Numbered from the stretch's first letter, positions 5,801 through 60,392 are shown. The stretch: 64,000 bases of DNA from an uncultured bacterium (GCA_963719425.1 OY970382.1:135888-199887); one strand, 5' to 3'. The notes: a model not told the origin generated them from the letters alone. A program made the numbers and translations.

Positions 5801-7501
5801 ATGACGGCGGCCGAGGATAAAGAGTGTCAAAATTGCAAAGGGAAATTTTCAATTTTTCCCGACGATTTTGCTTTCTATGAAAAAATAAAAGTGCCGCCGC
5901 CGACGTGGTGTCCGGAGTGCCGGATGCAGAGAAGATTGGCGTGGCGGAATGATTTTACTTTTTACAATCGTACGTGTGATCTCTGCGGCAGGGACATAAT
6001 TTCGGTGTATGCCCCCAATAATCCTCAGACTATTTATTGCAATACGTGTTGGTGGGGCGACAAATGGGATGCAAAGCAGTATGGAATGGAATTTGACTTT
6101 ACCAAGCCGTTTTTTGAGCAATACCGAGTTTTGCGAGAGAAGGTTCCAGCGCTAGCATTGGTGAACGACAACGGAATCGGGAGCGTAAACAGCGAATATA
6201 TGCAGAATGTTGAGTTTAGCAAGAACTGCTACATGGCGATGGTGGCGTGGAAACTAGAAAATTGTCTGTATTCCAGTTATGGCGTGGAAGCAAAGGATGC
6301 TGTGGATTGTATGGGAATGTTGGGCAATAACGAGAGAACGTACGAATTGATGTACTCCGAAAAATGTTATGGGTGTCGTAATGTTTATAATTGCGCGTCA
6401 TTAATCGATTGCGCGTTCTGTTATGATTGCCACAACTGTGAGCATTGCTTTATGTCAGCCGGATTGCGGAATAAGAAATTCTGCTTTCGGAACCGGCAGT
6501 ATGCCGAGGACGAGTACAAAAAGATTGTTGACTCCTATGCGCTCCATTCCTGGTTTGGCAGCGAGCGTGCCAGGGAAGAGTTTGAAAAATTCATTCTCAA
6601 ATATCCACGGAAGTTCGCGTACCTCAAAAACTGTGTGAACTGTACGGGCGACAACCAATTCAATGCGAAAAATGCCCACTGGGTTTTTCACGCCCGTCGT
6701 ACCGAAAACAGCAAGTATCTTGAAAACGGCGATACCCAAATTGACAGCTACGATTTAAGCGTTGGGGGTGAGTTGGAGCAGTGTTACGAAGGGATCACCC
6801 CCGATCACTCACATCGTGCGTTCTTCACTATTTATACTTGGAAAAGCACCGATGCGATCTACTGCGAATTTTGTCAGTCTTCTCATAACCTTTTCGGCTG
6901 TGTTGGATTGAAGAGCGCTGAGTATTGCATTTTGAACAAAACATACTCGAAGGAGGAGTATTTCGATCTGCGTTCTAGAATAATTGAGCATATGAGAAAA
7001 ACAGGAGAGTGGGGTGAGTTTTTTCCAATGAATCTCTCTCCGTTCGGCTATAACGAAACAATGGCGCAGATGTCTTTTCCCTTGAGCAAAAAAGAGGCCA
7101 TACGAAGAGGATTGAGGTGGCAAGACAATATTCAGCAAACCACAGGAAAGGAGACCATGAGGTGGAACGATGTGCCTGATTCAATCCGCGATATCCAGGA
7201 TTCTATTTTGAACGAGATTCTGCTGTGTCAGAAATGTCATAGGAATTTCCGGGTTGTTCAATCGGAGTTGGAGTTTTATAGAAAAAACGATATTCCAATT
7301 CCGAGGATTTGTTTTTATTGCCGGTTAGCCGCGCGTTTTGCGTTGCGAACCCCGTCAAAACTTTGGAAGCGGCAATGTATGTGTGATAAAAACCACCCGC
7401 ATCATGCCGGGCAGTGCTTGAATAAATTTGAAACACCTTATGCTCCTAGCCGCCCCGAGGTCGTGTACTGCGAGCAGTGCTACCAGGCAGAGGTGGCATA
7501 G
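5801..7501 (+). CDS. large Cys-rich protein, paralog 1 of an undescribed family (bipartite zinc-ribbon modules)
   Basis: 566 aa. N-terminal CQNCKGKFSIFPDDFAFYEKIKVPPPTWCPECR. Central CxxC/CxGC-dense region. C-terminal CQKCHRNFRVV...FYRKNDIPIPRICFYCR ... SYAPSRPEVVYCEQCYQAEVA. Paralogs at 44325 and 46122. Confidence 0.8.
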   Translation: MTAAEDKECQNCKGKFSIFPDDFAFYEKIKVPPPTWCPECRMQRRLAWRNDFTFYNRTCDLCGRDIISVYAPNNPQTIYCNTCWWGDKWDAKQYGMEFDFTKPFFEQYRVLREKVPALALVNDNGIGSVNSEYMQNVEFSKNCYMAMVAWKLENCLYSSYGVEAKDAVDCMGMLGNNERTYELMYSEKCYGCRNVYNCASLIDCAFCYDCHNCEHCFMSAGLRNKKFCFRNRQYAEDEYKKIVDSYALHSWFGSERAREEFEKFILKYPRKFAYLKNCVNCTGDNQFNAKNAHWVFHARRTENSKYLENGDTQIDSYDLSVGGELEQCYEGITPDHSHRAFFTIYTWKSTDAIYCEFCQSSHNLFGCVGLKSAEYCILNKTYSKEEYFDLRSRIIEHMRKTGEWGEFFPMNLSPFGYNETMAQMSFPLSKKEAIRRGLRWQDNIQQTTGKETMRWNDVPDSIRDIQDSILNEILLCQKCHRNFRVVQSELEFYRKNDIPIPRICFYCRLAARFALRTPSKLWKRQCMCDKNHPHHAGQCLNKFETPYAPSRPEVVYCEQCYQAEVA

Positions 7502-7541: not shown

Positions 7542-9947
7542 ATGCTCGGCTTTTACATATTTTTGTCCGTTGTCGTTGCCGCCGTCGCGGGCACAGCGAT
7601 CTATTTTATTTTTCGCTCGCTCGCGCGGCGAAGGATAGCGCTGTCCTTGAGCACTTCGGTTTTTCTCATCAAAATTCCGAAGCCAGCCGGGGGATCGGAG
7701 GCCACTCCCGGAGGCTCGGAGAATAAGGATTTCAAGGCGGAACTCGCGCACTTTGAGCAGCTTTTAGGAAGCTTGGCGGCGATCAAGAAACCGTTCACGT
7801 TTGAAGTTGCTGTCCCGCATGTAGGAGAAGAGATCCACTTTTACCTTACCGTGCCGAAACTGTCTTCAGAAGTGGCTGCGAAACAGGTCTTGGGTCTGTG
7901 GAGCGGCGCCTCGGTGGAACGGGTGACAGACGATTTCAATATTTTCAATCCGCACGGCGAGGCTGTCGCGGCGTTCGTAAAGCAGAAGGAGCACTATGGG
8001 CTTCCCATGCGTACCTATAACGAACTCGGCATTGATTCGTTTGAGCCCATCGTGGGCGCGCTCGCGAAGATAAACGAGATCGGCGAGGGGGCAGCGGTGC
8101 AGGTCATCATGCAGCCCGCGCCTGCGGGAACAAAGAAAGAGGTGCAACGCGCAATAGAGCGTTTGAAAAGGGGCGAGCCGTTCAAAAAAGTGTTTCGGAG
8201 CGATTTCATGCGCTCACTCTCCGAGCCGGGGGAGATTTTGAATCCGAAGACCAAAGAGAAAAAAACGGAGGAGAAGCAGGAGCGCGTGGTAGACGAAGAG
8301 GCGGCGAAGGCGCTCCAGGCGAAGATCATGAAGCCGCTTTTCTTTGTAAACGTGCGGCTCGTCGCCTCGGCGGGGTCGCAATTCCAGGCGAATGATATTT
8401 TGGACGGGCTTGCCGCCGGATTCAGCCAGTTTGGGAGTCCTACGCGGAACGATCTCCGAGTGATAAAACCGCGGAACTCCGACAAGCTCATCCGCAAATT
8501 CATCTTCCGTGAATTTGACGCGTCGCAATCCATGACGCTTTCCAGCGAAGAGATCGCGAGCTTTTATCATTTGCCGATCTCGTCTACCGAAACGCCGCAC
8601 GTGAAGTGGCTCAAGTCAAAAGAAGCGCCGCCGCCGGAAAACCTCGCCAAACAAGGAGCGCTCCTCGGCTACAGCAATTTCCGCGGGGAATCAAGACCTA
8701 TTTACATCACGGACGAGGACCGACGCCGCCACATCTACGTGATCGGGCAGACCGGCACCGGGAAGACCACGGAGATTTCAAGCATGCTCATTGAGGATAT
8801 CCAGGCGGGCAAAGGCGTCGCGATCATTGATCCGCACGGGGAGTTCGCGGAGAAAGCGCTCGCCAAGGTGCCGAAGGAACGCGTTGAGGACGTGATCTAT
8901 TTTGACCCAAGCGACCTTGCGCGGCCCATGGGCATCAACATGCTTGATTACAATTTCAGCCGACCGGAGGAGAAAACGTTCATCGTGAACGAGCTTTTGG
9001 GAATTTTTGACAAATTGTATGACCTGAAGACCACGGGCGGTCCGATGTTTGAGCTCTATATGCGCAATGCTCTTCTTCTTCTTATGGAAGACATGCCGAA
9101 CGAGGAGGCGACCCTGATTGAGGTGCCCCGCATTTTCACGGACACTGCGTATCGCGTGCGGAAGCTTGAACGTATCCAGAATCCTACCGTCATTGATTTC
9201 TGGGAAAAGGAGGCGATCAAGACAAGCGGCGAGCAGTCGCTCGCCAACATGGCGGTGTACGTGAGCTCAAAGTTCACCGCCTTCATCTCTAACGACTACA
9301 TGCGGCCGATCATCGGCCAACCGAAGTCGGCGTTCAATTTCCGCGATGCGATGGACAACGGGAAGATTTTACTCATCAACCTTTCAAAAGGGAAGATAGG
9401 CGACCTCAACGCCAACCTGCTCGGCATGATCTTCATCGGGAAGATTTTGATGGCGGCCCTCTCGCGCGTGGAGATCGCGGATGAGTCAAAGCGCCGTGAC
9501 TTTTACCTCTATATTGACGAGTTCCAAAATTTCGCCACCGAGGCGGTTGCGACTATCCTTTCCGAGGCGCGCAAATATCATTTGAGCATGACGATGGCGC
9601 ACCAATTTATCGCGCAGCTTAAAGAGAATATCCGCGATGCCGTCTTCGGCAACGTGGGAACCCAGCTCATATGCCGCGTGGGACCGCAGGACGCGGAATT
9701 CCTCGTGAAGCAATTTGAGCCGGTATTCAACAAGAACGACCTTATCAGTATTGATAATCTGAACGCGTTTGTGCGGCTTCTCGTGAACGGCCAGACCTCG
9801 CGCCCGTTCAATATGAAGATGAACACGTCGTCGTGGGCGCCTGGCAATGCCGAACTCGCCGCGAAGCTCAAAGAGTATTCACGCATAAAGTTCGGACAGG
9901 ACAGGCAGGTGATAGAAGACGAGATCTATCGGCGCCTGCGGGAGTAG
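7542..9947 (+). CDS. membrane-anchored P-loop ATPase, type IV coupling protein-like (VirD4/TraD/FtsK-HerA superfamily)
   Basis: N-terminal TM helix. Walker A IYVIGQTGTGKTT. Walker B FYLYIDEFQNF. C-terminal AHQFIAQL motif resembling T4CP. No other T4SS genes nearby. Confidence 0.55.
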   Translation: MLGFYIFLSVVVAAVAGTAIYFIFRSLARRRIALSLSTSVFLIKIPKPAGGSEATPGGSENKDFKAELAHFEQLLGSLAAIKKPFTFEVAVPHVGEEIHFYLTVPKLSSEVAAKQVLGLWSGASVERVTDDFNIFNPHGEAVAAFVKQKEHYGLPMRTYNELGIDSFEPIVGALAKINEIGEGAAVQVIMQPAPAGTKKEVQRAIERLKRGEPFKKVFRSDFMRSLSEPGEILNPKTKEKKTEEKQERVVDEEAAKALQAKIMKPLFFVNVRLVASAGSQFQANDILDGLAAGFSQFGSPTRNDLRVIKPRNSDKLIRKFIFREFDASQSMTLSSEEIASFYHLPISSTETPHVKWLKSKEAPPPENLAKQGALLGYSNFRGESRPIYITDEDRRRHIYVIGQTGTGKTTEISSMLIEDIQAGKGVAIIDPHGEFAEKALAKVPKERVEDVIYFDPSDLARPMGINMLDYNFSRPEEKTFIVNELLGIFDKLYDLKTTGGPMFELYMRNALLLLMEDMPNEEATLIEVPRIFTDTAYRVRKLERIQNPTVIDFWEKEAIKTSGEQSLANMAVYVSSKFTAFISNDYMRPIIGQPKSAFNFRDAMDNGKILLINLSKGKIGDLNANLLGMIFIGKILMAALSRVEIADESKRRDFYLYIDEFQNFATEAVATILSEARKYHLSMTMAHQFIAQLKENIRDAVFGNVGTQLICRVGPQDAEFLVKQFEPVFNKNDLISIDNLNAFVRLLVNGQTSRPFNMKMNTSSWAPGNAELAAKLKEYSRIKFGQDRQVIEDEIYRRLRE

Positions 9948-18000: not shown

Positions 18001-18184
18001 GGATCGCTTGGTTTGGGAAAAACTTTACAGCTCACTTCAAGAGGATGATTTTAAAGACCACCAATATGGATTACAAAACTTAATCAACTCCATAAAGACC
18101 ATAAATCCTATTGGATACAATGAAATTATTGCCAATAAGATTATAAATCAAAAACTTTTGATATGTCATATTTTGACACATTAG
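15017..18184 (+). CDS. membrane-anchored P-loop NTPase (STAND/AAA-like) with C-terminal 38-aa helical tandem repeats
   Basis: Two N-terminal TM helices. Walker A ISGRPGEGKTM. Walker B KIILIDDAH. Eight or more repeats of FEKLAxxANKAxxxQLxQVAxFLxALKDKRGELIGRL. AT-rich composition. ORF track start 14990 is TTG. First ATG at 15017 used. Confidence 0.75.
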   Translation: MKRKNKRKLKESWKAIAGIAVIVGILEAVDVFAGINFNNFPQWVVAECVKKNYPLCGNTITVQAICLLASILLILGIIELISASLKQNRKYFELVDFEKPTGEVRREALEGILNSEKAKPSFVHVAPISEEVESSFKKLDKEGFLWISGRPGEGKTMLAYHVLYKFFKQGYKIYELKTDLINKDLVSDEKKLEQIVGELDILKGGKRKIILIDDAHKLEPKFEDGLMSEIRDEAEEKINGKFFGIDTNYLGTKELDQSSSIALNFDEFYKTTFFKKLYQSEDPLIKEVVENRCINLEGAIKQKEVDHEIKDPWHFNFIATKGEERITEALNDLGGGNEAKRRILRIAIFLFSVRNIITGEKEITEIDFIDKVLPTINNEYVYNPYQSDPLKIIIDLVQENRRLLIINDESSFQRNLLKAPHYRSSIAIVKRLTELCDENEVERMIDASKIFLKNDYKDSAYLGVYFSSIGKYQTYFLNENKNWVKGFLTNVIVEQLQVYPFFLNILREYHEEFFRKLITDEYFDTIAPEISSSSANKFSAIAAFLTALKDKRGELIGRLNFEKLAEVANKAGADQLSQVAEFLGALKDKRGELIGRLSFEKLAGAANKATVYQLKQVAAFLTALKDKRGELIGRLNFEKLAEVANKAGADQLSQVAEFLGALKDKRGELIGRLSFEKLAGAANKAGVDQLEQVANFLQTLGNERNKLVEKFDFEKLAGAANKATVYQLKQVAAFLTALEDKKGELIGRLDFEKLAEAANKAGVEQFAQLEAILNVLGNERNKLIEKFDFEKLAGAANKATVYQLKQVADLLGALKDKRKKLSQYFVTEVILRYSKLLGRDQIPSFCIIVANLDKQKKNQVIQNIDWASLLDLTPINHPDIIKHLSYILDYHNTKCNLLNQDANDKRIRDYLSINRNKIIYFSTCLFSPPDGYQSAAYVLDALYPHAIDISKTIVGNLEYKIISQFKISPLYYHSFSHLLDAIHRIHPPASNAILSDRLVWEKLYSSLQEDDFKDHQYGLQNLINSIKTINPIGYNEIIANKIINQKLLICHILTH
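16630..17480 (+). repeat. in-frame coding tandem repeat (114-bp unit; two successive 228-bp copies are nucleotide-identical)
   Basis: Stretches such as CTTTCCTTACGGCTTTGAAAGACAAGAGGGGCGAACTTATCGGCAGATTG... recur exactly at about 16643 and 16871. Protein-level 38-aa repeat. Confidence 0.8.
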
Positions 18185-18279
18185 AAAGTATTTTAAACGA
18201 GCACTAAAATGAGACACGCCATCGGAACGGACGTTATTAACTTATTGGAAAATGAGAATTTTTATTACATAATTCTCAT

Positions 18280-18474
18280 ATGAATGGATTAGAGCAATGG
18301 TTGATTTTGCTTATTGCAATCATCCTGATAGTACTTGCCCTCTCGGTTAAATTTCTCAGAAAGACCATGGGTTTGTTACTCGTTATCTTGGGTGGCCTTG
18401 CATGTTTGACGATAGTTGGTTTGATCATAGGTATCCCAATGATAATTATTGGTGGGATTTTCCTGTTTATTTGA
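18280..18474 (+). CDS. small two-TM membrane protein (hypothetical)
   Basis: 64 aa, almost entirely hydrophobic (LILLIAIILIVLAL / LLVILGGLACLTIVGLIIGIPMIIIGGIFLFI). Same strand, 95 nt downstream of the NTPase. Confidence 0.55.
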   Translation: MNGLEQWLILLIAIILIVLALSVKFLRKTMGLLLVILGGLACLTIVGLIIGIPMIIIGGIFLFI

Positions 18475-18500
18475 TTACGGATTGTGCCATAATTTTAACG

Positions 18501-19511
18501 ATGCAATACACTGTCCAAGCTACGACCACTATCTCCGTCGCAAGTAGTAATGGCGCAACGAGTTTATTAAATAGTCCGTTATCCGTTTCGCTTTTGGATG
18601 GTGCTATCGGATTAATACTGGCCGCATCAATTGCGGCATATGTCTCACTAAAGCAGATTGGATTTCAAAAAGTGAGAGATAATATTGAAAAGAGATATCT
18701 TGAAAACGGACTTGAAAAACTGATTAGCCACCTCAATTTTATTAGATTGGAATCAGAAGATACCTACGCTAGGGCCGTAAGTGTCGTACAGCATCTCAGA
18801 GATTTAAATAAAGAAGACTTTAAAAAATGGTTTCTCGCAATAAAACCGAAAGATTATAGGCATTCTTCTCCGGGGATGCCCGATTCGCTTATTACAACCG
18901 GAGCTTTCATAAAAGATAAATTGTTTCAGTATCTTGCTATTAAGATATCTTTAATCATCAATTCTTCCAGTGATTTCTTTACAACAGAATTTTTTAGATT
19001 GATCGAAAATGAATTTGAAAACGAACACGGGCTGTTCGAATTGAAAGCAAGGACAGAACCAAAGAAATGGAAAGAAATAATGGATAAAGTGAAGAATGAA
19101 CTCACCCGACACCACAACCAAAATGCCCCCGTTTATGAACTAGTACCGGTACTCGAATTGATTTTAATCAGGTTAAGAGAACTCAATCTCCACTCATATA
19201 AAAAATTTATTGAAAAAGCTCGAAGTGATGAAAAAATTTTAGGCTACTATAACGATATAAAAAATATTCTTCTGAAAGATATTACCAACTCCTATGCGAC
19301 GATCCTTGAGTATATTTCATTATTGGAACAAAAAAGAGGTGATCAGTTGCGGCCGTTTAAAGAACAGGATTTGGCAGGGCTCACTTCTGATGTAGAAAAA
19401 ATATCCTCTAATACTCCACTAACGGATAATGAGATTATAGCAATAGAGCAAAAGATAGACGAAGCAATAATTCAGCTACGATGGATAATGGGCGGGGTCA
19501 TCGTGGTATAG
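18501..19511 (+). CDS. hypothetical membrane-anchored protein, Lys/Glu-rich helical
   Basis: One predicted TM (GAIGLILAASIAAYVSL) followed by charged helical region. Alternative ATG at 18402 overlaps previous gene out of frame. AT-rich island gene. Confidence 0.5.
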   Translation: MQYTVQATTTISVASSNGATSLLNSPLSVSLLDGAIGLILAASIAAYVSLKQIGFQKVRDNIEKRYLENGLEKLISHLNFIRLESEDTYARAVSVVQHLRDLNKEDFKKWFLAIKPKDYRHSSPGMPDSLITTGAFIKDKLFQYLAIKISLIINSSSDFFTTEFFRLIENEFENEHGLFELKARTEPKKWKEIMDKVKNELTRHHNQNAPVYELVPVLELILIRLRELNLHSYKKFIEKARSDEKILGYYNDIKNILLKDITNSYATILEYISLLEQKRGDQLRPFKEQDLAGLTSDVEKISSNTPLTDNEIIAIEQKIDEAIIQLRWIMGGVIVV

Positions 19512-44315: not shown

Positions 44316-44324
44316 GTTGCAGGT

Positions 44325-46115
44325 TTATACCACCTCCGCCTGATAGCACTGCTCGCAGTAGACGATTTCGGGGCGGTCGGGAGCGTAGGAAGTTTCAAAC
44401 TCGTTGGGACAAGGCTTACTACCGTGAAAATGAGGGGCGGTATTTGTGTAGCTGCCTACCTTCGCTCCAACGCATGCACACGTACGTTTATAAAGCTGCG
44501 GAACATTGCGCCAGCTGATACGCTCTACGTGGCGACAATTGAAACACAGCTTCGGCAATGGCAAATTCATTTGCCTATAGAACTGCAATTCTTGCTGCGT
44601 GATGCGGAAAACCGTAGGACAATTGGCTCCGCATTGGCGTCCGGCATGATCTCCGGTTTCGTCGTGCTGGCACTGGATTATCTCTTGGGTGATAGCATCA
44701 CCGGTTTCGGTGATAGTATCGGGCAGGGTGGAAGCGGCTTGGGTTGGTTCATATCTTCTTTTCTCGGGAACGCGCCACTTGAATCCCATGCGCTCAACCT
44801 GACTTCTCGGAAGTTGGAAATATTCATACGCTTGGGATTCGTTGAACCCGAAGGGGCTCATGTCGGGCGGGAAGAACTCGCCGTACTTGTATTTCCTGCC
44901 GAGCGCATCCACATAAGGCACCTCGTTCATATGCGCGATTATCTTTGGAATAAGTGATTCATATTCTTCTTTTGAGTACTGCTTATTGAGGACGCAGTAC
45001 TGCGCGTTGCGCAGTCCCACGCAACCGAACACATTCCGCGAGTTGCGGCACGTGACGGAATAGCGTATGTCACTCACCGTTTCGCAATCAAACGAAAAAT
45101 ATACTCCGCGCAGGCCTTGTCCGCAGCAGCTTATTTCATAGTTGCGTTCAATATCGACGCCCGAGGAGGTAACGTCTATGCAGTCCCGAATTGGGTTGTA
45201 GATGACGCTCTGGCAATGCGCGCAGTTTTGGACCTCATTCGTGAAAAAACAATTGCGCACCTCCGAGGAGTTGTATATATAGTCGCCGATGCAACCCTCA
45301 TCCTTTAGTCCGTGCCGAAAACGGAACGGAAACGAAAGCCAAACCCTCTCCGCCTCTCGTTGCATTCGTTCCAATCCCCGCCTTGAGTGCAGGTTAAATC
45401 CCGCCACTTTTTTTCGATAGTTTTCTTTCGAGTATGGTTGGTTAAAGATATAGTAGCTTTTGTTCCGCAAACCAGTGCACCCCACGCAGTCGCTGCACCC
45501 GACGCAATCCTGGCTGAACCATATTTCGCGGCAACCGGTGCAATTTCTGGAAAAGAAGATCCGGTAACAGTTCGTCGTGTTGATCACGTAATAGCAAAGT
45601 TCGCATAGTTTGCAATTGATGGTGTCAAAACATTGCCTGCTCTTTTGTAGGGAAACACCATATGCACTGTCTTCAGAAAACCCAGCGTCAAAGCAGAGAT
45701 ACGTATTTTTCATGTCCAGACCCATGCTGTAATCGCTGTTGACCTGGTTGCGGGACATGATGTAGGTGAAGGGCACGACGTTGAATAAATCCCGTATTTG
45801 ATCAAAAAACGGCCGCGTAAAATCATATTCCCGCGCGTATGCCCTGGGATCCCACGCGTCGCTCCACCAGTAGTCTCGCTCAAACGGGGGCATGGGCGCA
45901 TTAGGGGGCACCATGCTGAAAATTTTTTTACCAGTGCCAGCGCAAGTGCGTTCGTAGAGATAGCGGAAGTTACGAAAAGCCATCCGCCGCATGGCCCGGC
46001 ATCTCCAGCACCAGGTCGGTGGCGGCACGTTGAGGCTTTTATAGAATGTAAAATCCTCCGGCTCTATCGTGAATTGGTTTTTGCAATTCTGGCAAATTCT
46101 TGTTTCAGTATTCAT
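44325..46115 (-). CDS. large Cys-rich protein, paralog 2 (tandem pair)
   Basis: 596 aa. N-terminal CQNCKNQFTIEPEDFTFYKSLNVPPPTWCWRCR. Central DCVGCSDCVGCTGLRNKSYYIF. C-terminal ...SYAPDRPEIVYCEQCYQAEVV. Confidence 0.8.
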   Translation of the reverse strand: MNTETRICQNCKNQFTIEPEDFTFYKSLNVPPPTWCWRCRAMRRMAFRNFRYLYERTCAGTGKKIFSMVPPNAPMPPFERDYWWSDAWDPRAYAREYDFTRPFFDQIRDLFNVVPFTYIMSRNQVNSDYSMGLDMKNTYLCFDAGFSEDSAYGVSLQKSRQCFDTINCKLCELCYYVINTTNCYRIFFSRNCTGCREIWFSQDCVGCSDCVGCTGLRNKSYYIFNQPYSKENYRKKVAGFNLHSRRGLERMQREAERVWLSFPFRFRHGLKDEGCIGDYIYNSSEVRNCFFTNEVQNCAHCQSVIYNPIRDCIDVTSSGVDIERNYEISCCGQGLRGVYFSFDCETVSDIRYSVTCRNSRNVFGCVGLRNAQYCVLNKQYSKEEYESLIPKIIAHMNEVPYVDALGRKYKYGEFFPPDMSPFGFNESQAYEYFQLPRSQVERMGFKWRVPEKRRYEPTQAASTLPDTITETGDAITQEIIQCQHDETGDHAGRQCGANCPTVFRITQQELQFYRQMNLPLPKLCFNCRHVERISWRNVPQLYKRTCACVGAKVGSYTNTAPHFHGSKPCPNEFETSYAPDRPEIVYCEQCYQAEVV

Positions 46116-46121
46116 ATCACG

Positions 46122-47903
46122 TTATGTCACCTCTGCCTGATAGCACTGCTCGCAGTACACGATCTCGGGGCGGTCGGGGGCATAGGAGGTTTGAAAACGA
46201 TTTGGACACGCTTTTTCTGAATGGAAATGGCGTACAGTATTTTTGTAGACTGAGTTATTTGCATGCAATCCTGCGCATTGACACTGTCTTTCAAAAAAGC
46301 GAGGGATGTTTCTTTGCCGCAAGCGCCCATAATGACGGCAGTTGGGGCAAAGCCGCGGGAGCGGGAGATGGAAGCGTTGCAAAAACGCCAATTCCTGCGG
46401 GATAATCCGGAAAGCCCCGGTGCATTCTTCCTCGCATTTCCCTTTGTGCGCGCAACCTATCACTTCTTTCAGGACGCTATCATCCATATCCGAAATTCGA
46501 TCCGCCAAATTCCCTGCCGCCTTCGTGGGCGCATAATCGCGTTTTTCCTCTTCACGCCAAGGCAGTTTTCTGGCCTCCGCCCACTCGCGGCTCCGCGGAT
46601 ACAATTCCTGCGCCTCGGAGATGTTGTACGGGAACGGAGAGAATTCCATCGGGAAAAATTCGCCGTAACGATGGATGCAACCCGCGGCATTTACATAGGG
46701 GACATCGTTCATATGTTTGACGATCTTGGGAACGAGAGTTGCATACTCTGCTTTGGAATATTGCTTGTTCAATATGCAATATTGTTTGTGGTGCAAATTC
46801 GCGCAGCCGAAAATATCCGTGGAACCCGGGCAATTTATCGAATATTCCACATTCTTGCAACCACCCCAGCAGTAGGCAGAGAATTTTACGTTATAGGTTT
46901 TGTTCCCGCATGTTATCGAGTCATAAATGAGTTCTGATGCGTCACCCCAGTTGGCGTAGTCGTAGCAATCCTTCGCTGGCCCCGCGAGCAGATTTACGCA
47001 GTACTTCACATCTTCCGCGCCGGTGACCCGATAACAGTAATGGGCGTTCTTAGAGTGATACACATAATCGCCGGATACGTTTAGGTTTTGAAGCCCCTGC
47101 ATGAATTTCACCGGGAATCTTAGCCACACCTCATTCGTCCGCTGCCGACATTTCTCGAACGCGCCGTAAGAGCCAAGGTCCAGCTCCCGAACCCGCGTTG
47201 CGTACTCCTCTTTGCGATAAGGGATATTGAAAATGCAGTATGATTTGCTGCGCAACCCAACGCATCCAACGCAGTCCGAGCAACCGACGCAATCTTTCGA
47301 AAAAAGCACATCGCGGCAGTCCTCGCAATTCATCGAGAAGAAGGTTTGATAACAGCGCGCCATATTCACATTTCCATAACAAAATTCGCAATGATTTGTC
47401 ATGTGGCTGTCTATGCAGTGCTTGGAGGATTCGTCCCAAATTACATATGCACAATCCTCCGTATGCGCCAACCCATGGGAAAAGTAGCAATTTTTGGAGA
47501 ATGAGGCATTCGCGCAATATTCGCAATTGGTTATGCTTTGTACGTTTGCATGGGGAAACGGCGTTTCGAGAAAGAGCTCGTGAACCTGCGCGAGAAATGG
47601 CCGCGACCAGTCTATTTCTCTTCCATATACTAACGGATCCCAGCCGTCGGAATGCCAAAAATCCTTATCGTAAATTTTTAGCGGCGATTCTGGGGGGACG
47701 AATGAGAGTATTTCCTGCCCGGTTCTCGTTTCCTGTCTTTTATACAGGTGCCACACGTTCCTCCATGCGAAGCGCCGCGCAGAGCGACATTCTGGACACC
47801 AGATAGGCGACGGTACCTTTATCTTCTCGTAAAACGCAAAATCCTCCGGCTCGATTGTGAACTGGTTCTCACAGTTCTGGCACACCCGCGTTTCCCGTTC
47901 CAT
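46122..47903 (-). CDS. large Cys-rich protein, paralog 3 (tandem pair)
   Basis: Start re-chosen at internal ATG (MERETRVCQNCENQFTIEPEDFAFYEKIKVPSPIWCPECR). Central DCVGCSDCVGCVGLRSKSYCIF. C-terminal ...SYAPDRPEIVYCEQCYQAEVT. 6 nt upstream of paralog 2. Confidence 0.8.
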   Translation of the reverse strand: MERETRVCQNCENQFTIEPEDFAFYEKIKVPSPIWCPECRSARRFAWRNVWHLYKRQETRTGQEILSFVPPESPLKIYDKDFWHSDGWDPLVYGREIDWSRPFLAQVHELFLETPFPHANVQSITNCEYCANASFSKNCYFSHGLAHTEDCAYVIWDESSKHCIDSHMTNHCEFCYGNVNMARCYQTFFSMNCEDCRDVLFSKDCVGCSDCVGCVGLRSKSYCIFNIPYRKEEYATRVRELDLGSYGAFEKCRQRTNEVWLRFPVKFMQGLQNLNVSGDYVYHSKNAHYCYRVTGAEDVKYCVNLLAGPAKDCYDYANWGDASELIYDSITCGNKTYNVKFSAYCWGGCKNVEYSINCPGSTDIFGCANLHHKQYCILNKQYSKAEYATLVPKIVKHMNDVPYVNAAGCIHRYGEFFPMEFSPFPYNISEAQELYPRSREWAEARKLPWREEEKRDYAPTKAAGNLADRISDMDDSVLKEVIGCAHKGKCEEECTGAFRIIPQELAFLQRFHLPLPRLCPNCRHYGRLRQRNIPRFFERQCQCAGLHANNSVYKNTVRHFHSEKACPNRFQTSYAPDRPEIVYCEQCYQAEVT

Positions 47904-47990
47904 TACCTCAATTCTACCAGAATAGGAAAAACCTACGCCTCTCGGTCTGCCCGGCACTCATATTTGTATGGTATCCTAGGAAAGAAACGG

Positions 47991-48293
47991 ATGAAATATA
48001 ACAAGCTTGTGCGCGACAAGATTCCCACATACATCCGCAAAAAAGGTGGGAAGCCAGTTTATCACGTGGCGACTCGAGCGGAGTACTGGAAGAAGTTGAA
48101 GGAAAAGCTGCACGAAGAGATCAAGGAATTTGTGCGGGACGAGAGTCCTGAGGAATTCGCCGATCTCCTTGAGGTGCTGGGTGCAATCGCAAATTACAAG
48201 AAATTTGACCGAAAGCGAATAGCAAAGCTGAGAGCAAAAAAGGTAAAGGAACGAGGACGGTTCGAGAAGCGAATCGTTCTTGACGAAGCTTAG
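47991..48293 (+). CDS. MazG/HisE-like NTP pyrophosphohydrolase (small all-alpha)
   Basis: 100 aa. EYWKKLKEKLHEEIKEF...EEFADLLEVL pattern of MazG-like house-cleaning enzymes. Confidence 0.5.
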   Translation: MKYNKLVRDKIPTYIRKKGGKPVYHVATRAEYWKKLKEKLHEEIKEFVRDESPEEFADLLEVLGAIANYKKFDRKRIAKLRAKKVKERGRFEKRIVLDEA

Positions 48294-48297
48294 TTCT

Positions 48298-48564
48298 ATG
48301 AAAATTTCCAAAAAATCTTTTTCCAAAAAAGTATATGCCGTCGTCGCGAAGATCCCACGCGGGAAGACGTTGACCTATCGGGAGGTCGCGCGGCGGGCGG
48401 GGAGTCCGCGGGCATACCGCGCGGTCGGGAATATTTTGAACAAAAACCGCGATCCGCGCGTGCCGTGCCATCGCGTCACGCGCTCGGACGGCGATCCGGG
48501 CGGATTTGCATGGGGCCGCAAAAAGAAGATAATGATGTTGCGGCGCGAAGGGGCGCTCCCGTAG
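48298..48564 (+). CDS. MGMT-family DNA-binding domain protein (Ogt C-terminal-like)
   Basis: PCHRV active-site motif. Winged-helix segment LTYREVARRAGSPRAYRAVGN. Confidence 0.65.
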   Translation: MKISKKSFSKKVYAVVAKIPRGKTLTYREVARRAGSPRAYRAVGNILNKNRDPRVPCHRVTRSDGDPGGFAWGRKKKIMMLRREGALP

Positions 48565-50299: not shown

Positions 50300-52729
50300 A
50301 TGATAGACGAGAGAAAACAAACCATTCCTACCATTCTCGTGGTCCTGGGCGCCACGGGCGACCTTATGGCAAAAAAGATCGTGCCGGCGCTTTTTAATTT
50401 GCATGTGAAAAAGCGGTTGCCGCCAAGGTTCAAGCTCGTAGGTGTTTCAAGGCGCGCGTGGGGCGACGACGATCTCCGTACGCACCTCCGCACCATTCTT
50501 GAAAAGAGGACATCGCATGCCTCCGCCGCAACCATACGATCGTTCCTTGACCTTGCCGTGTATCATCGGTTGGTATTTGACTCGCCGAAGGACTACCTGG
50601 CACTCAACGATCTTTTAAAGAAGATTGACGACACGTGGGGCATGTGTGCGAACAAACTTTTTTATCTTTCGGTCCCGCCGCAGTTTTACTCGCTCATCCT
50701 TGCCCATCTGCACCGCAGTCATCTGACCGACGGCTGCGGCCCGAACGAGGGATGGACGCGCGTGATCGTGGAAAAGCCGTTCGGCAACGATGAAAAGAGC
50801 GCGAAAGCGCTTAATGCCCAACTTACAAAGCTCTTTCGGGAGGAACAAGTGTATCGGATAGATCATTATCTTGCGAAGGAGATGTTGCAGAATATTCTGA
50901 TGTTCCGGTTCGCGAACGATCTTTTCGAAAGCGAATGGACGAGCCGCACGCTAGAGAGCGTCCACATCCGCCTATTTGAGCAGATCGGCGTTGAGGGACG
51001 CGGTGCGTTCTACGATCATGTGGGCGCCTTGCAGGATGTGGGCCAGAACCATCTTTTGCAAATGCTCGCGCTCATTGCCATGGAGCGGCCCGTGCGGTAC
51101 GATGCTCACGCGATCCGCCCGCTCCGTGTGGAGCTTTTGAGGCACCTCATCGTTCAGACGCCCCGTGAGGCCGCCAAGAACTCGTTTCGCGCGCAATACG
51201 ACGGCTACCGCTCTATGGAAGGGGTTGCTCCCCATTCAAAAACCGAAACGTACTTTCGGATCAAGGGGTTTCTCTCTGGTGCGCGATGGGAAGGGATGCC
51301 GATTTTCATGGAAAGCGGGAAGCGACTCGGCGAGCCGCAGAAAGAGATTGAGATCGTGCTGCGCCACGAACAGCCCTGCCTTTGCGGAGGGAAAGAACAC
51401 CATCACAACCGTATTTTCATCAACCTTGAGCCTACGGAGGGGATAACGATCAGATTTCATTCAAAGAAGCCGGGACACACGTTTGAGTTCGAAGAACGGA
51501 CGTTGAACTTTGACTTCCGAGAATCGGTCCGTCGTGCACAGTATACCGAGGAGTACGAAAGGCTGATCTTGGACTGCATCGCGGGCGACCAGACACTCTT
51601 TGTTTCAAGTGAGGAGGTCGCCGCTATGTGGAAGTTCATAGACCCGTTCATCATTGCGTGGAAAAAGAACTTGGTTCCGCTGCGGTACTACGCGCCGGGC
51701 GGCCGTAAGATTGTCGCTGAAGCGGCGGTGTTTGATGATGCGGTGGAAAAAGACGGGACTCTAGCGCTTCCAAAGGAAATAGGCGTTTTTGGGCTTGGGA
51801 GGATGGGCGCGAACGTGGCGCGGCAGCTGCGCGATAAAGGATGGCGCGTCATCGCGGCCAATCGCTCGCCGGAGCCCTTGCAACAGCTGGAGAGCGAAGG
51901 TTTTGAAGCGGCGTATTCTCTCGCGGAACTCGCGGCGAAGCTCGCGGTGCCGCGAAGACATTCGCCGCGCGTGGTCTGGCTCATGATCACTGCCGGAAAA
52001 GGAGTGGACAAATTTCTCTTCGGGACTCGCGGCAAGGATGGCCTTGTGCCGCACCTTAAGAAAGGTGACATCGTGATAGACGCCGGCAACTCGTTTTTTG
52101 AGGACAGTGTGCGCCGCGCGAAACTCCTCGGCAAGCGCGGTATCCGGTTCGTGGATGTCGGCTTCTCGGGCGGCCCACGCGGTGCGCGCTACGGCGGCTC
52201 GCTCATGATCGGCGGCGACCGCAAAACATTTGAATATTTGGAGCCGCTCTTCGCCGACCTCTCCGTGCCCTTGGGCTACGCGTATTTCGGTGATGCGGGC
52301 GCAGGCCATTTCGTGAAGATGGTCCACAACGGCATTGAATACGGTATGATGCAGTCCTTGGCGGAAGGGTTCGCACTCATGAGGAAGTCGCCATTCAAGC
52401 TTGACCTTGAAAAGATTGCGCGCGTATATAACCGCGGCAGCGTCATTGAGTCGCGGCTCGTCGGATGGATGGAAGAAGTGTTCCGCATGTACGGCAAGGA
52501 TCTGCGTACGGTATCCGGCATCGTTCACGCGACCGGCGAAGGCGAGTGGACCATAAAAACCGGCCGCAAGTGGCGCGTGAAACTGCCGGCGATAGAAGAT
52601 GCATTCAAGTTCCGCACGCGTTCACAACGCGCGCCGAGCTATATGGGCCGAATTCTCTCCGCGCTCCGCAATCGCTTCGGCGGCCATGCGATAGGGGAAA
52701 AGAAAGAAACCAAAAACAAAAAAATATGA
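50300..52729 (+). CDS. zwf: fusion: glucose-6-phosphate dehydrogenase (N-terminal) plus 6-phosphogluconate dehydrogenase-like NAD-binding enzyme (C-terminal)
   Basis: N-terminal GATGDLMAKKIVPALFNL, EKPFGND, RIDHYLAKEMLQNIL. C-terminal from about residue 490 GVFGLGRMGANVARQL...GNSFFEDS...VGFSGGPRGARYGGSLMIGGD...HFVKMVHNGIEYGMMQ. Confidence 0.75.
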   Translation: MIDERKQTIPTILVVLGATGDLMAKKIVPALFNLHVKKRLPPRFKLVGVSRRAWGDDDLRTHLRTILEKRTSHASAATIRSFLDLAVYHRLVFDSPKDYLALNDLLKKIDDTWGMCANKLFYLSVPPQFYSLILAHLHRSHLTDGCGPNEGWTRVIVEKPFGNDEKSAKALNAQLTKLFREEQVYRIDHYLAKEMLQNILMFRFANDLFESEWTSRTLESVHIRLFEQIGVEGRGAFYDHVGALQDVGQNHLLQMLALIAMERPVRYDAHAIRPLRVELLRHLIVQTPREAAKNSFRAQYDGYRSMEGVAPHSKTETYFRIKGFLSGARWEGMPIFMESGKRLGEPQKEIEIVLRHEQPCLCGGKEHHHNRIFINLEPTEGITIRFHSKKPGHTFEFEERTLNFDFRESVRRAQYTEEYERLILDCIAGDQTLFVSSEEVAAMWKFIDPFIIAWKKNLVPLRYYAPGGRKIVAEAAVFDDAVEKDGTLALPKEIGVFGLGRMGANVARQLRDKGWRVIAANRSPEPLQQLESEGFEAAYSLAELAAKLAVPRRHSPRVVWLMITAGKGVDKFLFGTRGKDGLVPHLKKGDIVIDAGNSFFEDSVRRAKLLGKRGIRFVDVGFSGGPRGARYGGSLMIGGDRKTFEYLEPLFADLSVPLGYAYFGDAGAGHFVKMVHNGIEYGMMQSLAEGFALMRKSPFKLDLEKIARVYNRGSVIESRLVGWMEEVFRMYGKDLRTVSGIVHATGEGEWTIKTGRKWRVKLPAIEDAFKFRTRSQRAPSYMGRILSALRNRFGGHAIGEKKETKNKKI

Positions 52730-57717: not shown

Positions 57718-58011
57718 TTATTTTACCGTGATGAGGAATTTCTCGCGCCGCAGACCGCGCGTTTTTGAAGATGCCATCTTTTTGTTTTCCTCAAGGATCA
57801 GCGTGAGCGCTTCACGGAGGTTTTCCTTCGCCTCCTTCATGGTGCGTCCCTGAGTGTGCGCTCCCGGCACTTCCTCAATCCAGGCAATGATCCAACGCCC
57901 CTCTTTTTTATATACCGCCGTGTATTCCCGCTTTGGCATACTTTGAATATACGGCAGGCCGACCTTGTTTTCGATTGCCATCGTCATGGGAATATTATAC
58001 TCACCGAACAT
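57718..58011 (-). CDS. hicB: HicB-like antitoxin (UPF0150 family)
   Basis: YTAVYKKEGRWIIAWIEEVPGAHTQGRTMKEAKENLREALTLILEEN pattern. Confidence 0.55.
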   Translation of the reverse strand: MFGEYNIPMTMAIENKVGLPYIQSMPKREYTAVYKKEGRWIIAWIEEVPGAHTQGRTMKEAKENLREALTLILEENKKMASSKTRGLRREKFLITVK

Positions 58012-58105
58012 TAAATAATTATTAACTGCAAATTTCTTTTAATAAAAATTTAATCTTTATTTTCAACTATTAACATCACAACGGGAAATCTATCCAAAAG
58101 CGGTT

Positions 58106-58136
58106 GGCCGTCTGGTACGAAGTTGGAACTGCCTTA
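58106..58136. repeat. 31-nt repeat, copy 2 (GGCCGTCTGGTACGAAGTTGGAACTGCCTTA)
   Basis: 29/31 identity with 19675-19705. Marks left edge of AT-rich islet. Confidence 0.6.
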
Positions 58137-58180
58137 GTAGCTTCTTTGATGGGTTGCTAAAATGGCACCTTTATTAGATA

Positions 58181-59134
58181 ATGACAATAACCAATATGGA
58201 GGAAAGACATACCGAGATTAGTGATAAATCCAAAGGCGTTCATTATTCTTATACATTAACGGCCATATCAGCGTTCATATTTGGCGTTATCGCGATTTTA
58301 CTTTTTAACAATTACGCGTCTGCAGAGAAAATCAGTTTTTCTACGGTGGGCATAATAAACTTAGTTTTTTCAATTGGGCTGTCCACTGCCTCGATAGTTC
58401 TGGCAATAACAGCAATAGTTTTGAGCAAGAAATCAGAACAGACGATCATGCAAAGAAATGATGATGGAATAAAATATCAAAGCGAAATATTCAACAAAAC
58501 CATCGATGTTCTAAGTAAAATAGAGACCTCCACGGGTATCAGCGAAAAAAGAATCGAGGATATAACACGGGAAATCAAATCCATTGAAAGAAGCAAGCCT
58601 GGCCCCAAGTCGAAAGACGATCAAGTTAAAGAAGCTTTACGAAGAGCATTACATTCTCATCCTGAAAAGAGCGACATCCGTAGCAAAAAAGTTCCTGATA
58701 AGCAGGAAGAATTTACAAAGAGCGTAATGGAAACTCTTAGCCAAATTCGTGGCGTGAGTTTGGTTAGAGTCAGTAGTGGCGACTTCGACGAATCAGGAGA
58801 GGAAATGGTTGACGGGATTTTTTCTATGGCTGGCCAAAGATTTTCCGTTAGTACCTTCTATTTTTATGGGCCAGCGAAAATCGCCAATTTTGCAGATTCA
58901 GATACATACAAGCAATATTTTCTTAACCTTGCATCCGAGATATCAAAAAATACTTTTGAAAAATCTTTCTTAGTGTTCAATAAAGATGTGGATAATGACG
59001 AAGAGTTTAAAAATCTCTTTAATAGCACCTTGAATATTTTAGACAAAAAAATAGCCCCCAAAATTGTTTTAGCATCAGGTTCTTTGGAAAACATCAAAAA
59101 GGTAATCGCTCAAGTATTGGGCGTAAGAGTTTAA
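58181..59134 (+). CDS. hypothetical two-TM membrane protein with charged cytoplasmic domain
   Basis: 317 aa, AT-rich, TM helices ISAFIFGVIAILLF and LVFSIGLSTASIVLAITAIVL. No family recognised. Confidence 0.5.
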   Translation: MTITNMEERHTEISDKSKGVHYSYTLTAISAFIFGVIAILLFNNYASAEKISFSTVGIINLVFSIGLSTASIVLAITAIVLSKKSEQTIMQRNDDGIKYQSEIFNKTIDVLSKIETSTGISEKRIEDITREIKSIERSKPGPKSKDDQVKEALRRALHSHPEKSDIRSKKVPDKQEEFTKSVMETLSQIRGVSLVRVSSGDFDESGEEMVDGIFSMAGQRFSVSTFYFYGPAKIANFADSDTYKQYFLNLASEISKNTFEKSFLVFNKDVDNDEEFKNLFNSTLNILDKKIAPKIVLASGSLENIKKVIAQVLGVRV

Positions 59135-59338
59135 TTTTTTAGGACTCAGCAGTTTGGAAGAGGGATCAGGCCATATCACATCACAAAATCGTTCGAACGT
59201 CGTCCAGGCTTACGCACTAAGGAAATTATGAAATTTAAGAATAACTTTTAGTAGTCATTGTTGGGCTCGGTGTTGCTGCGTATATCGCAGTCAAAACTAA
59301 TCCAAAACTGGTGGAATACAACTGACGTGTTATATTTT

Positions 59339-59375
59339 GTTAACCATTGACGTGATAGGTTAACATAAGTTAATT
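59339..59375 (+). promoter_or_regulatory. promoter with palindromic operator upstream of excisionase-like HTH gene
   Basis: GTTAACC ... GGTTAAC inverted repeat flanking TTGACG (-35). 17-nt spacer. TTAATT (-10) 8 nt before ATG 59384. Confidence 0.45.
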
Positions 59376-59383
59376 TATTTGTT

Positions 59384-59638
59384 ATGGAAAAAACTTTGTT
59401 CTCTGCGGGAGAGGCCGCAAAGATTTTGGGGATAAGTCGGATTGCGGTGTTCAAGAAGATAAAATCCGGCAAGATAAAAGCTGTCAAAGTGGGATGCAAC
59501 TTTGTGATTCAAAAGAAAGCCCTTGCGGAAACATTGGGCGAGAGTATCGGGGAAGATAAAAAGCGCGAGATAGAGAAGGTGGTGAACAGGGCTGTGAGGG
59601 AATACAAAGAAGTTTTTAGGCAATTGGGCAAGGAATGA
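59384..59638 (+). CDS. excisionase-family helix-turn-helix DNA-binding protein
   Basis: GEAAKILGISRIAVFKKIKSGKIKAVKVGCNFVIQKKAL matches MerR-like excisionase/HTH_17 domain. Confidence 0.6.
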   Translation: MEKTLFSAGEAAKILGISRIAVFKKIKSGKIKAVKVGCNFVIQKKALAETLGESIGEDKKREIEKVVNRAVREYKEVFRQLGKE

Positions 59639-59681
59639 GGATACAATTTCTGATTTTTTTGCTATCATTTGGTATGTTCCT

Positions 59682-60392
59682 ATGATTCAGTTTTCCCACC
59701 TCACGAAGACCTACAAGAAGCGGAACGTAGTGGACGATTTTTCGCTCGCGGTGGACGTGCCTATTTTTGGGTTTCTGGGCCAGAACGGGGCAGGGAAGAC
59801 GACGGTCATGAAAATGATCGTGGGATTGCTCCGGCCGACTGCGGGGGCGATCATACTGGACGGGAAGGCCTCGTGCGATGTGGCCTCAAAGCGGCGGATG
59901 GGGTATATGCCGGAGACGCCATATTTCTACGAACGGATGACGGGGTTGGAATTCATGCGTTTTTGCGATGAGCTTGTGGGCGCGCACAAGGGAAATCGCA
60001 CGGCGCACTACGAGACGCTCCTCAAGCGGACGGGCATCTACGAGGCGCGGAATGCGGAAGTGCGGACATATTCAAAGGGCATGCGCCAGCGGCTTGGCTT
60101 TGCGCAGGCATTGGTCGGCGATCCGGAATATCTTTTTTTGGACGAGCCGTTGGACGGGCTTGACCCTCTCGGCCGGCGCGAGATGAAAGAGGTCATGCGT
60201 GAGCTCAAAAAAGAGGGGAGAAAGATCTTTTTGAACACGCACATCCTCTACGACGTGGAGGAGGTGTGCGACGAGATGGGCGTGATCCACGAGGGGAGGC
60301 TGCTCTATGCGGGGCCCGTGAAAAAGTTCTGCGCGGGAAAACCGCTTGAGGAGCGCTTTGTGGAGGTTGTTGCCGCGCAAGAAAAAGCATGA
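59682..60392 (+). CDS. ABC transporter ATP-binding protein
   Basis: Walker A GQNGAGKTT. Signature YSKGMRQRLGFA. Walker B LFLDEPLDGLD. Confidence 0.8.
   Translation: MIQFSHLTKTYKKRNVVDDFSLAVDVPIFGFLGQNGAGKTTVMKMIVGLLRPTAGAIILDGKASCDVASKRRMGYMPETPYFYERMTGLEFMRFCDELVGAHKGNRTAHYETLLKRTGIYEARNAEVRTYSKGMRQRLGFAQALVGDPEYLFLDEPLDGLDPLGRREMKEVMRELKKEGRKIFLNTHILYDVEEVCDEMGVIHEGRLLYAGPVKKFCAGKPLEERFVEVVAAQEKA

Follow-up and report, generated by a model that had tools for sequence, protein, structure and literature searches.

Secretion systems of type IV (T4SS) occur widely in Patescibacteria (the candidate phyla radiation, CPR), and their substrates are unknown (PMC12102498). A 2025 survey counted 5,713 VirD4-like type IV coupling proteins (T4CPs) in 2,918 genomes of this group, of which only 148 lie near virB4, and its authors left open the exaptation of these T4CPs for other functions (PMC12102498). 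In small proteins of Methanosarcina a CxxC-x17-CxxC module has been shown by inductively coupled plasma mass spectrometry (ICP-MS) to bind zinc (PMC12704099). Here we describe a locus in a stretch of 64,000 nucleotides (nt) from an uncultured bacterium (GCA_963719425.1, OY970382.1:135888-199887), which we refer to as the window. Two genes for Cys-rich proteins, paralogs A and B, lie head to tail in it, and they belong to a very large uncharacterised multigene family that is specific to Patescibacteria (Parcubacteria/Paceibacteria-type lineages).

The explanation that we favour joins a description of the family, a labile slot and an inferred function, and as a whole we consider it probable, with reservations. 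A and B would be anciently diverged, individually functional members of the family. Its genes would stand in head-to-tail, tightly spaced and most likely co-transcribed arrays, remodelled by homologous recombination in a 5' head and a 3' tail, which would swap bodies between slots, fuse neighbours and add or remove copies. The B-A pair would then be a transient outcome of this remodelling in a variable slot, and not a dedicated two-subunit unit. In the evolutionary and structural part of this explanation we have high confidence.

The gene pair and its history

The pair, its surroundings and the third family member of the window are as follows (positions are those of the window; aa, amino acids).

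44325..46115, minus strand: paralog A, an open reading frame (ORF) of 596 aa with the same architecture as B
46116..46121, minus strand: spacer CGTGAT of 6 nt, with the TAA of B on one side and the ATG of A on the other, read from the sequence
46122..47903, minus strand: paralog B, an ORF of 593 aa from its ATG, predicted to be soluble, with 6.7% Cys, predicted terminal zinc fingers and a duplicated repeat core
47904..47990, minus strand: region upstream of B, divergent from a MazG-like gene, with an extended -10-like element TGGTAGAAT at 47919-47911 and GAGGT at 47909-47905
5801..7501, plus strand: paralog C, 566 aa, found by tblastn of A and B against the window

The initial annotation had described a head-to-tail pair on the minus strand separated by 6 nt, and both ORFs and the spacer are read in the sequence (GAG GTG ACA TAA CGT GAT ATG across the junction). 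It had ended the pair at 47957, which is the GTG that opens the maximal ORF of B. The ATG at 47903 is more likely to be the start, because its product, MERETRVCQNC, is in register with A (MNTETRICQNC) and with the homologs, and because GAGGT lies 4 nt upstream. The common termini CQNCxNQFTIEPEDF and YCEQCYQAEV are present in both proteins. That the two are substantially diverged elsewhere is partly apt, with 46% of the 600 aligned columns identical and 61% positive (BLASTP, E = 0), but the homology runs over the full length and includes conserved blocks near residues 201-240 and 361-440 besides the termini. The earlier numbering as paralogs 2 and 3 agrees with the presence of C, which is about 36% identical to each of A and B. 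The longest exact nucleotide run common to the paralogs of the window is 23. Just upstream of C, a gap of 6 nt separates its ATG from the end of a 142-aa ORF (5366-5794, plus strand) with a proline-rich centre, PPAPPPPPPAAASP. This ORF matches no Pfam model, and its nucleotide sequence is conserved in a related locus (L007; comparator loci are given by such numbers).

The spacing and the lack of internal signals suggest that B and A are most likely co-transcribed. No sigma-70 promoter-like or terminator-like site was found by a scan of the junction, a scan that is uninformative in that it gave fewer sites than shuffled sequence. B is in the same frame as A, which carries no meaning because in-frame junctions occur at chance family-wide (20 of 74); a read-through or fusion of the two genes was rejected for this reason. 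Nor is there much support for the idea that GAGGTG, within the stretch encoding the conserved AEV tail, is used as the Shine-Dalgarno sequence by the gene that follows, as a motif of this kind lies within 20 nt of the start in only 11 of 74 internal genes.

The duplication that separates A and B is ancient, because synonymous divergence between them is saturated (proportion of synonymous differences, pS, 0.81) and because each gene is closer to orthologs in other lineages than to its neighbour. A-clade orthologs in other CPR lineages have 62-67% identity (L001, L082, L083) and B-clade orthologs 67% in Liptonbacteria (L005, L035), against 46-47% between A and B. The saturation leaves the ratio of nonsynonymous to synonymous divergence (dN/dS, omega) for A against B not computable; for close orthologs of each gene it is 0.077-0.089. 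A is 91% identical at the amino acid level to its ortholog in L081 (dN/dS 0.077, dS 0.62), and B is 91% identical to the body of a gene in L007, found also in L092 (dN/dS 0.089, dS 0.37). A and B are functional and constrained. Omega is likewise 0.077 between L038_1 and L057_1, family genes from another pair of close genomes.

The extreme 3' ends differ from this pattern. Over the last 25 codons only, pS between A and B is lowered to 0.47, and in the tails of A, B and C (the last ~25 codons, 44328-44402 and 46125-46199 for A and B) third-position identity is 10-12 of 15-18. This likeness at synonymous sites fits and points to recombination or gene conversion, or a constraint at the nucleotide level.

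A variable slot, arrays and mosaic genes

The tandem arrangement of B and A is not conserved in relatives. No B-clade gene lies upstream of the other A-clade genes (0/6), and no A-clade gene downstream of the other B-clade genes (0/4). The surroundings of the pair are syntenic in relatives: one flank carries the ATP synthase operon together with a Pro_CA_2-like gene, and the opposite flank carries MazG-like, MGMT-like, Gmad2, HATPase, MPG and G6PD/6PGD genes. What lies between these flanks varies.

44316..47990: variable slot of 3,675 bp with A, B and their promoter, absent from L091 and occupied by a single other paralog in L089/L090
44305..44315, plus strand: left-hand copy, ACGAAGTGTAA, of the imperfect direct repeat of 11 nt on either side of the slot, from comparison with L091
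47991..48001, plus strand: right copy ATGAAATATAA of the repeat, which is the start of the MazG-like gene, from comparison with L091
Slot in L091 (899-kb genome, neighbour gene 82% identical at the amino acid level): no family gene, flanking genes overlapping by 11 nt
Slot in the sister species L089/L090 (21 contigs): one gene, the 555-aa paralog D of another clade, with B-type promoter and head
Slot in the window: two genes, B and A

In L091 a single copy of the 11-nt sequence, ATGAAGTATAA at 7401-7411, forms the overlap between the stop of the Pro_CA_2-like gene and the start of the MazG-like gene. The two copies in the window could be a target-site-like duplication, or microhomology used for deletion. 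Paralog D is 33% identical to A and B and 53-54% identical to genes in L071, L025 and L072. The sister species does carry relatives of both genes. Its A ortholog (91%) is a singleton in a different neighbourhood, seen in at least 8 contigs of up to ~0.5 Mb, and the body of its B ortholog (91%) occupies the slot which is held by C in the window.

Since close relatives carry zero, one or other family members in the slot, the juxtaposition of B and A appears to be a recent, lineage-specific state and not a conserved two-gene unit. The initial annotation had read the pair as an ancient tandem duplication kept as an operon and as a possible heteromeric pair. The first part holds in that A and B are true full-length old paralogs in the same direction; their adjacency has not been kept, and the conserved unit is contradicted by the partner clades and by a slot that holds zero, one or two genes.

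Among the flanking genes, the 809-aa ORF at 50300-52729 (plus strand) has syntenic counterparts of 791-806 aa in L083, L089 and L091. It is predicted to be a fused glucose-6-phosphate dehydrogenase/6-phosphogluconate dehydrogenase because these three relatives carry G6PD_N/G6PD_C and NAD_binding_2/6PGD domains.

A genome scan confirmed 546 loci with family members, and array organisation was examined in the best 80 of these as ranked by their match to A, each covered to 10 kb on either side. Nearly all of the 80 are labelled Patescibacteria, one is labelled Gammaproteobacteria, and most of the comparator genomes are metagenome-assembled genomes (MAGs). One copy is found at 34 loci, two at 19, three at 12, four at six, five at two, six at four, seven at two, and eight and nine at one locus each. 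The arrays are co-directional, with one opposite-strand case in this set, and lie among housekeeping genes in the neighbour clusters inspected. Start codons and complete ORFs were found for 183 of 216 copies. Four loci (L014 7153-7698 and three others) also have short ORFs within arrays which correspond to C-terminal halves of family proteins and are probably frameshifted or decaying copies.

Of 124 adjacent pairs on the same strand, 74 lie within 100 nt, 49 have gaps of -4 to +30 nt and 14 overlap by 4 nt, which makes the 6-nt spacer between B and A typical of the family and no evidence of a dedicated heteromer. The arrays are old, because neighbours are diverged (median identity 44%) and, of 53 tight pairs, 51 consist of two genes that are each closer to a gene at another locus than to one another. 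CPR genomes are tiny (about 0.89 Mb for the source of the window), yet several to more than 15 kb per locus are devoted to this family.

Several genes are mosaics of family members. In the sister species the A ortholog (L081) has a 5' untranslated region (a ~60-nt element) and first ~6 codons of the type of B in the window, and is A-type from CQNC onwards. The element upstream of B was considered as a family-wide promoter motif and rejected, as it matches only L081 among 84 loci. In the slot of L089/L090 the B-type homology reaches about codon 27 and is followed by the body of D, with a nucleotide match to 47821-48476 of the window. Another gene of the sister species (L007 8829-10613, equivalent to L092 4176-5957) has the upstream flank and first ~35 codons of C, the body of B and the downstream flank of C; it switches at PPTWCPECR and YCEQCYQAEV and is reproduced in the second assembly, L092. 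The close genomes L038 and L057, which are unrelated to the window, provide further cases: L057_3 consists of the head of L038_3 and the body of L038_4, and in slot 2 the head has been kept and the body replaced. In all of the mosaics, and in the slot 2 replacement, the 5' junction lies within the first ~6-50 codons. The 3' junction is resolved in L007/L092 and L089 and lies in the last ~10-16 codons. On these comparisons, bodies of family genes appear to be exchanged, fused, gained and lost through recombination in the conserved head and tail. This is an ancient family under purifying selection whose members swap slots among closely related genomes; together with its modular architecture and the link to VirD4-like ATPases described below, this makes the family experimentally approachable.

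The protein family and its architecture

The family has thousands of clusters and no name, Pfam model or literature. Database searches with A gave 7,359 significant matches, all annotated as hypothetical; those with a named source are all from Patescibacteria/CPR and include Liptonbacteria, Nomurabacteria, Staskawiczbacteria and Parcubacteria. When 1.84 billion representatives were searched exhaustively with a profile, 5,058 clusters (at 50% identity) were retrieved at E<=1e-3, 3,687 at 1e-10 and 2,161 at 1e-30. The 150 best clusters listed are mostly of about 550-600 aa, and the shorter ones among them cover the profile partially.

No Pfam or NCBIfam model matches A, B, C or 54 family members at its cut-off. 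Below the cut-offs, the N-terminus of B scores 16.6 bits with zf_Tbcl (PF13451), whose cut-off is 24, and the C-terminus of C scores 16.9 bits with zf_Tbcl_2 (PF23477), whose cut-off is 27. A matches neither, and the NCBIfam model TIGR04272 matches none of the three. Among the 54 family members such sub-threshold finger matches occur in seven (zf_Tbcl) and two (zf_Tbcl_2). Sequence and profile searches of the PDB gave nothing meaningful for the family, and in the literature we found no description of the family or of its domains, and none of tandem paralogs rich in Cys in CPR. A, B and C have a Cys content of 6.4-6.7% and no hydrophobic segment, transmembrane (TM) helix or signal peptide (maximum KD19 <= 1.24), which suggests that they are soluble and presumably cytoplasmic.

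Sub-alignments of the 183 full-length copies were compared profile against profile (HHalign), and three internal duplications were found. Residues 1-52 correspond to 478-540 (99.0%, E 2e-18), residues 50-90 to 541-596 (97.2%, E 4.5e-11) and residues 118-240 to 262-398 (99.9%, E 8e-36). From these the predicted layout of the family is a treble-clef finger and ribbon, two core modules, a linker, and a second treble-clef finger and ribbon. In A the parts are as follows.

45960..46115, minus strand: residues 1-52, predicted N-terminal treble-clef finger (C8/C11/C36/C39) followed by an Arg-rich helix; the head, with recombination breakpoints
45396..45764, minus strand: residues 118-240, core module 1, with 12-residue repeats (CxxC-x8), ending in GLRNKxY.IFN..YSKE.Y
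44922..45332, minus strand: residues 262-398, core module 2, a duplicate of module 1 within the protein
44496..44684, minus strand: residues 478-540, predicted second treble-clef finger (C482/C499/C524/C527), from conserved Cys and HHalign
44328..44495, minus strand: residues 541-596, predicted C-terminal zinc ribbon (C546/C569/C587/C590); the tail breakpoint region

Of 197 copies, 88-98% retain the Cys sets 8/11/36/39, 482/499/524/527 and 546/569/587/590. A treble-clef pattern, CxxC-x24-CxxC, is seen in the N-terminal finger and in the penultimate one. The C-terminal module and the module at residues 50-90 follow a ribbon pattern, CxxC-x17/18-CxxC, and the YCEQCYQAEV ending is the second knuckle of the C-terminal ribbon. 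In the first ribbon the four Cys (58/61/79/82) are complete in 85 of 183 copies, including C, and have been lost in A and B. From these patterns we infer that the fingers and ribbons bind zinc.

Within the core, Cys residues are also conserved at 204/207/210/213 and 365/374, and the CxxCxxCxxC stretch at 204-213 is kept in 79-96% of copies. Family-wide, spacings between Cys in core module 1 nearly always fall on multiples of three (observed/expected 2.3-3.9, with other spacings at about 0-0.1). The unit is one of 12 residues, CxxC-x8, in which Cys interchanges with Ser, Thr and Ala. An AlphaFold2 model of A, built on a 54-sequence alignment, has a mean predicted local distance difference test score (pLDDT) of 85 and a predicted template modelling score (pTM) of 0.87, and places one-residue strands every six residues in the two Cys-rich stretches. 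This periodicity and the modelled secondary structure suggest that the core is probably a narrow beta-solenoid with 12 residues per coil. Foldseek found no significant match for the model in the PDB (best E 0.5, TM-score about 0.08, below 0.1); its faint matches are to left-handed beta-helix and ice-binding solenoids, and against viral models the match is limited to the small zinc-ribbon parts.

Linked ATPases, possible functions and known systems

A lead on function comes from the neighbours. Non-family genes within three genes of a copy were clustered for 84 family-centred loci, and the commonest neighbour was a VirD4/TraD/TrwB-like ATPase, present in 34 of the 84 loci, with the next family present in 9. 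By tblastn the ATPase is found in 38 of 84 loci, and 49 of its 51 genes are on the strand of the array. The example in the window passes the Pfam cut-offs of TrwB_AAD_bind, DUF87, T4SS-DNA_transf and TraG-D_C, and has NCBIfam matches too. Three types can be told apart.

7542..9947, plus strand: VirD4/TraD-like coupling-protein ATPase of type i, 40 nt downstream of C, with N-terminal TM helix, N-domain and ATPase
Type i, 3 of 84 loci: TM helix, N-domain and ATPase, ~800 aa
Type ii, 14 of 84 loci: soluble ATPase with a C-terminal CxxC-x17-CxxC finger, ~687 aa
Type iii, 25 of 84 loci: soluble ATPase only, ~494 aa

Both type ii and type iii are present at 10 loci, where they are often interleaved with family genes. 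The finger of type ii passes the cut-offs of both zf_Tbcl_2 (PF23477, 54.4 bits) and TIGR04272 (52.7 bits), and in HHalign it is similar to ribbon 1 of the family (96.1%, E 3.6e-9) and to ribbon 2 (84.3%). To our knowledge, a coupling protein made of a soluble ATPase and a C-terminal CxxC-x17-CxxC finger has not been described. In L002 (6732-9233) and 13 other loci (for example L030 at 7911 and L026 at 7828) the finger of the type-ii ATPase, CSxCGK.T.VPF.P..GRPVYC.DC, is followed by a long low-complexity tail.

The conserved finger cassettes of the family may serve as common docking or ligand-binding handles, with the variable cores giving each paralog its specificity, and the proteins would probably act with soluble VirD4-like ATPases as adaptors or cargo. 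A function coupled to these ATPases is tentative, and we put it somewhat short of an even chance, but it makes the family a concrete candidate partner for the VirD4-like ATPases of Patescibacteria. A bolder extension, which we regard as unlikely though worth stating, is that the arrays and the soluble ATPases form an undescribed system of Patescibacteria. Exchangeable zinc-finger-capped solenoids would be loaded, unfolded or delivered by exapted ATPases, the ribbons would be matching handles, and recombination at the gene ends would reshuffle the repertoire. If true, this would give a role to thousands of orphan T4CP genes in CPR genomes.

Several observations weigh against our account. The locus sample is ranked by match to A and is not random for the family. 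Some of the relatives are MAGs, and individual mosaics could in principle be assembly errors; chimeric assembly is an unlikely source of the mosaics, given that at most 23 exact nucleotides are shared, the window lies on an 888-kb contig and the configurations recur in many contigs. The two Cys-rich stretches of the modelled core have a pLDDT of only 63-77. The A-B pair has no ATPase gene close to it; the window contains a single one, beside C and 36 kb away. In a reciprocal test on 80 metagenomic loci centred on type-i orthologs, a family copy was present in 10 of 80 and directly upstream in 5 of 59. A strong link to the window's own type of ATPase was dropped on this result, and because of it the link rests on types ii and iii. 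Lastly, co-location of arrays and ATPases could come from shared residence in variable regions.

Alternative explanations were also considered. The family may be a repertoire of secreted T4SS effectors, recognised through the C-terminal ribbon by VirD4-like proteins and delivered to host cells, which we judge quite unlikely. T4SS substrates typically carry C-terminal signals, and the C-terminus is the best-conserved part of the family proteins. Presence/absence and cassette swapping alongside strong purifying selection within clades is the pattern of effector repertoires, the family is enriched beside VirD4-like ATPases, and T4SS are widespread in the group (PMC12102498). However, the linked types ii and iii are soluble and have no membrane anchor of the kind found in canonical coupling proteins, and type i, which is membrane-anchored, is rarely found next to family genes. 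Export would require the unfolding of proteins with three to four predicted zinc sites. No virB4, channel or relaxase genes were seen among the neighbour clusters inspected, in which no search aimed at VirB4 was made. Moreover, conservation of the paralog clades between classes is 60-67%, an unusually high level for effectors that are host-specific.

FtsK/HerA-superfamily ATPases recur in defence systems, and linkage to ATPases of this superfamily would also suit an intracellular anti-phage or anti-plasmid conflict system with the diversified paralogs as sensors. Tandem arrays, turnover driven by recombination and variable slots are consistent with it, as is a weak PHROGs match between the core and phrog_15341 (E 2e-4), a phage protein family with no assigned function. 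Even so we find it very unlikely: no PADLOC model matches A, B or C at E<=0.1, a scan of viral contigs gave no family relatives, the family has no recognisable effector domain (nuclease, protease or similar), orthologs are under strong purifying and not diversifying selection, and the arrays are embedded among housekeeping genes.

An obligate A-B heteromer, encoded by a two-gene operon that was kept after an ancient tandem duplication, is less probable again and is disfavoured by the synteny described above. The same strand, the 6-nt spacer, the junction without promoter-like or terminator-like site and the purifying selection on both genes would agree with it, and A and B do fall in one broad subfamily (both without the ribbon 1 Cys, clustering together at the 45% level). 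Their adjacency is nevertheless unique to the source genome among the sampled A-clade and B-clade genes, the sister species has A as a singleton and the B body in another slot, syntenic relatives hold no gene or one gene in the slot, and arrays vary from one to nine copies and in composition. Metal-handling or redox proteins (zinc or iron stores, Fe-S carriers) with Cys-rich cores that bind many ions are the least probable alternative: despite the Cys content, the widely kept CxxCxxCxxC stretch and a CutA-like gene neighbouring copies in 9 loci, most core Cys swap freely with Ser, Thr or Ala among paralogs, as packing residues would and ligands would not, no ferredoxin or metallothionein model matches, and multiple diverged paralogs are unexpected for simple storage.

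Elsewhere in the window, the region 14990-19511 is a low-GC island (38-44% guanine plus cytosine against about 54% for the window) with a 1,064-aa nSTAND3/AAA NTPase (14990-18184) and a 369-aa protein (18402-19511) for which Pfam has no match; the region is probably a conflict-system island gained by horizontal transfer. A second low-GC stretch (58000-60000, 40.5%) contains a 317-aa ORF (58181-59134), again with no Pfam match.

Set beside known systems, the family shares with zf_Tbcl, zf_Tbcl_2 and TIGR04272 its CxxC spacing patterns, and its ribbon is homologous to the bona fide zf_Tbcl_2 on the neighbouring ATPases. The known domains are small stand-alone proteins or single appendages, whereas here two cassettes bracket a region of ~430 residues with a duplicated core, and scores remain below the curated cut-offs. 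To the VirD4/TraD/TrwB coupling systems it is related by genomic linkage, by the shared small domain and by its conserved C-terminus; in contrast to those systems, the linked ATPases are mostly soluble paralogs that are not near virB4, and A-B has no ATPase neighbour. No T4SS substrate or adaptor with the architecture of the family was found in the literature.

The likeness of the core to narrow Cys-rich beta-solenoids lies in the 12-residue unit, the laddered Cys/Ser/Thr/Ala and the strands every 6 residues. Insect antifreeze proteins have a repeat with a 12-residue coil, and the core may resemble them, in periodicity only. Unlike the left-handed beta-helices of LpxD, GlmU and gamma-carbonic anhydrase, the core has no Hexapep match at E<=1, and its unit is of 12 residues and not an 18-residue triangular coil.

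At the level of the genes, conserved ends, variable bodies, mosaics at the ends and changes in copy number recall the cassettes of pilE/pilS, vls and msp2 type and arrays that change by unequal crossing-over. In those cassette systems silent copies feed one expression site, whereas the copies in this family are mostly complete genes under purifying selection. The products are predicted to be soluble zinc-finger proteins and not surface antigens, and their clades are ancient and conserved across classes. We class the locus as an array of recombining paralogs from a protein family that has not been described.

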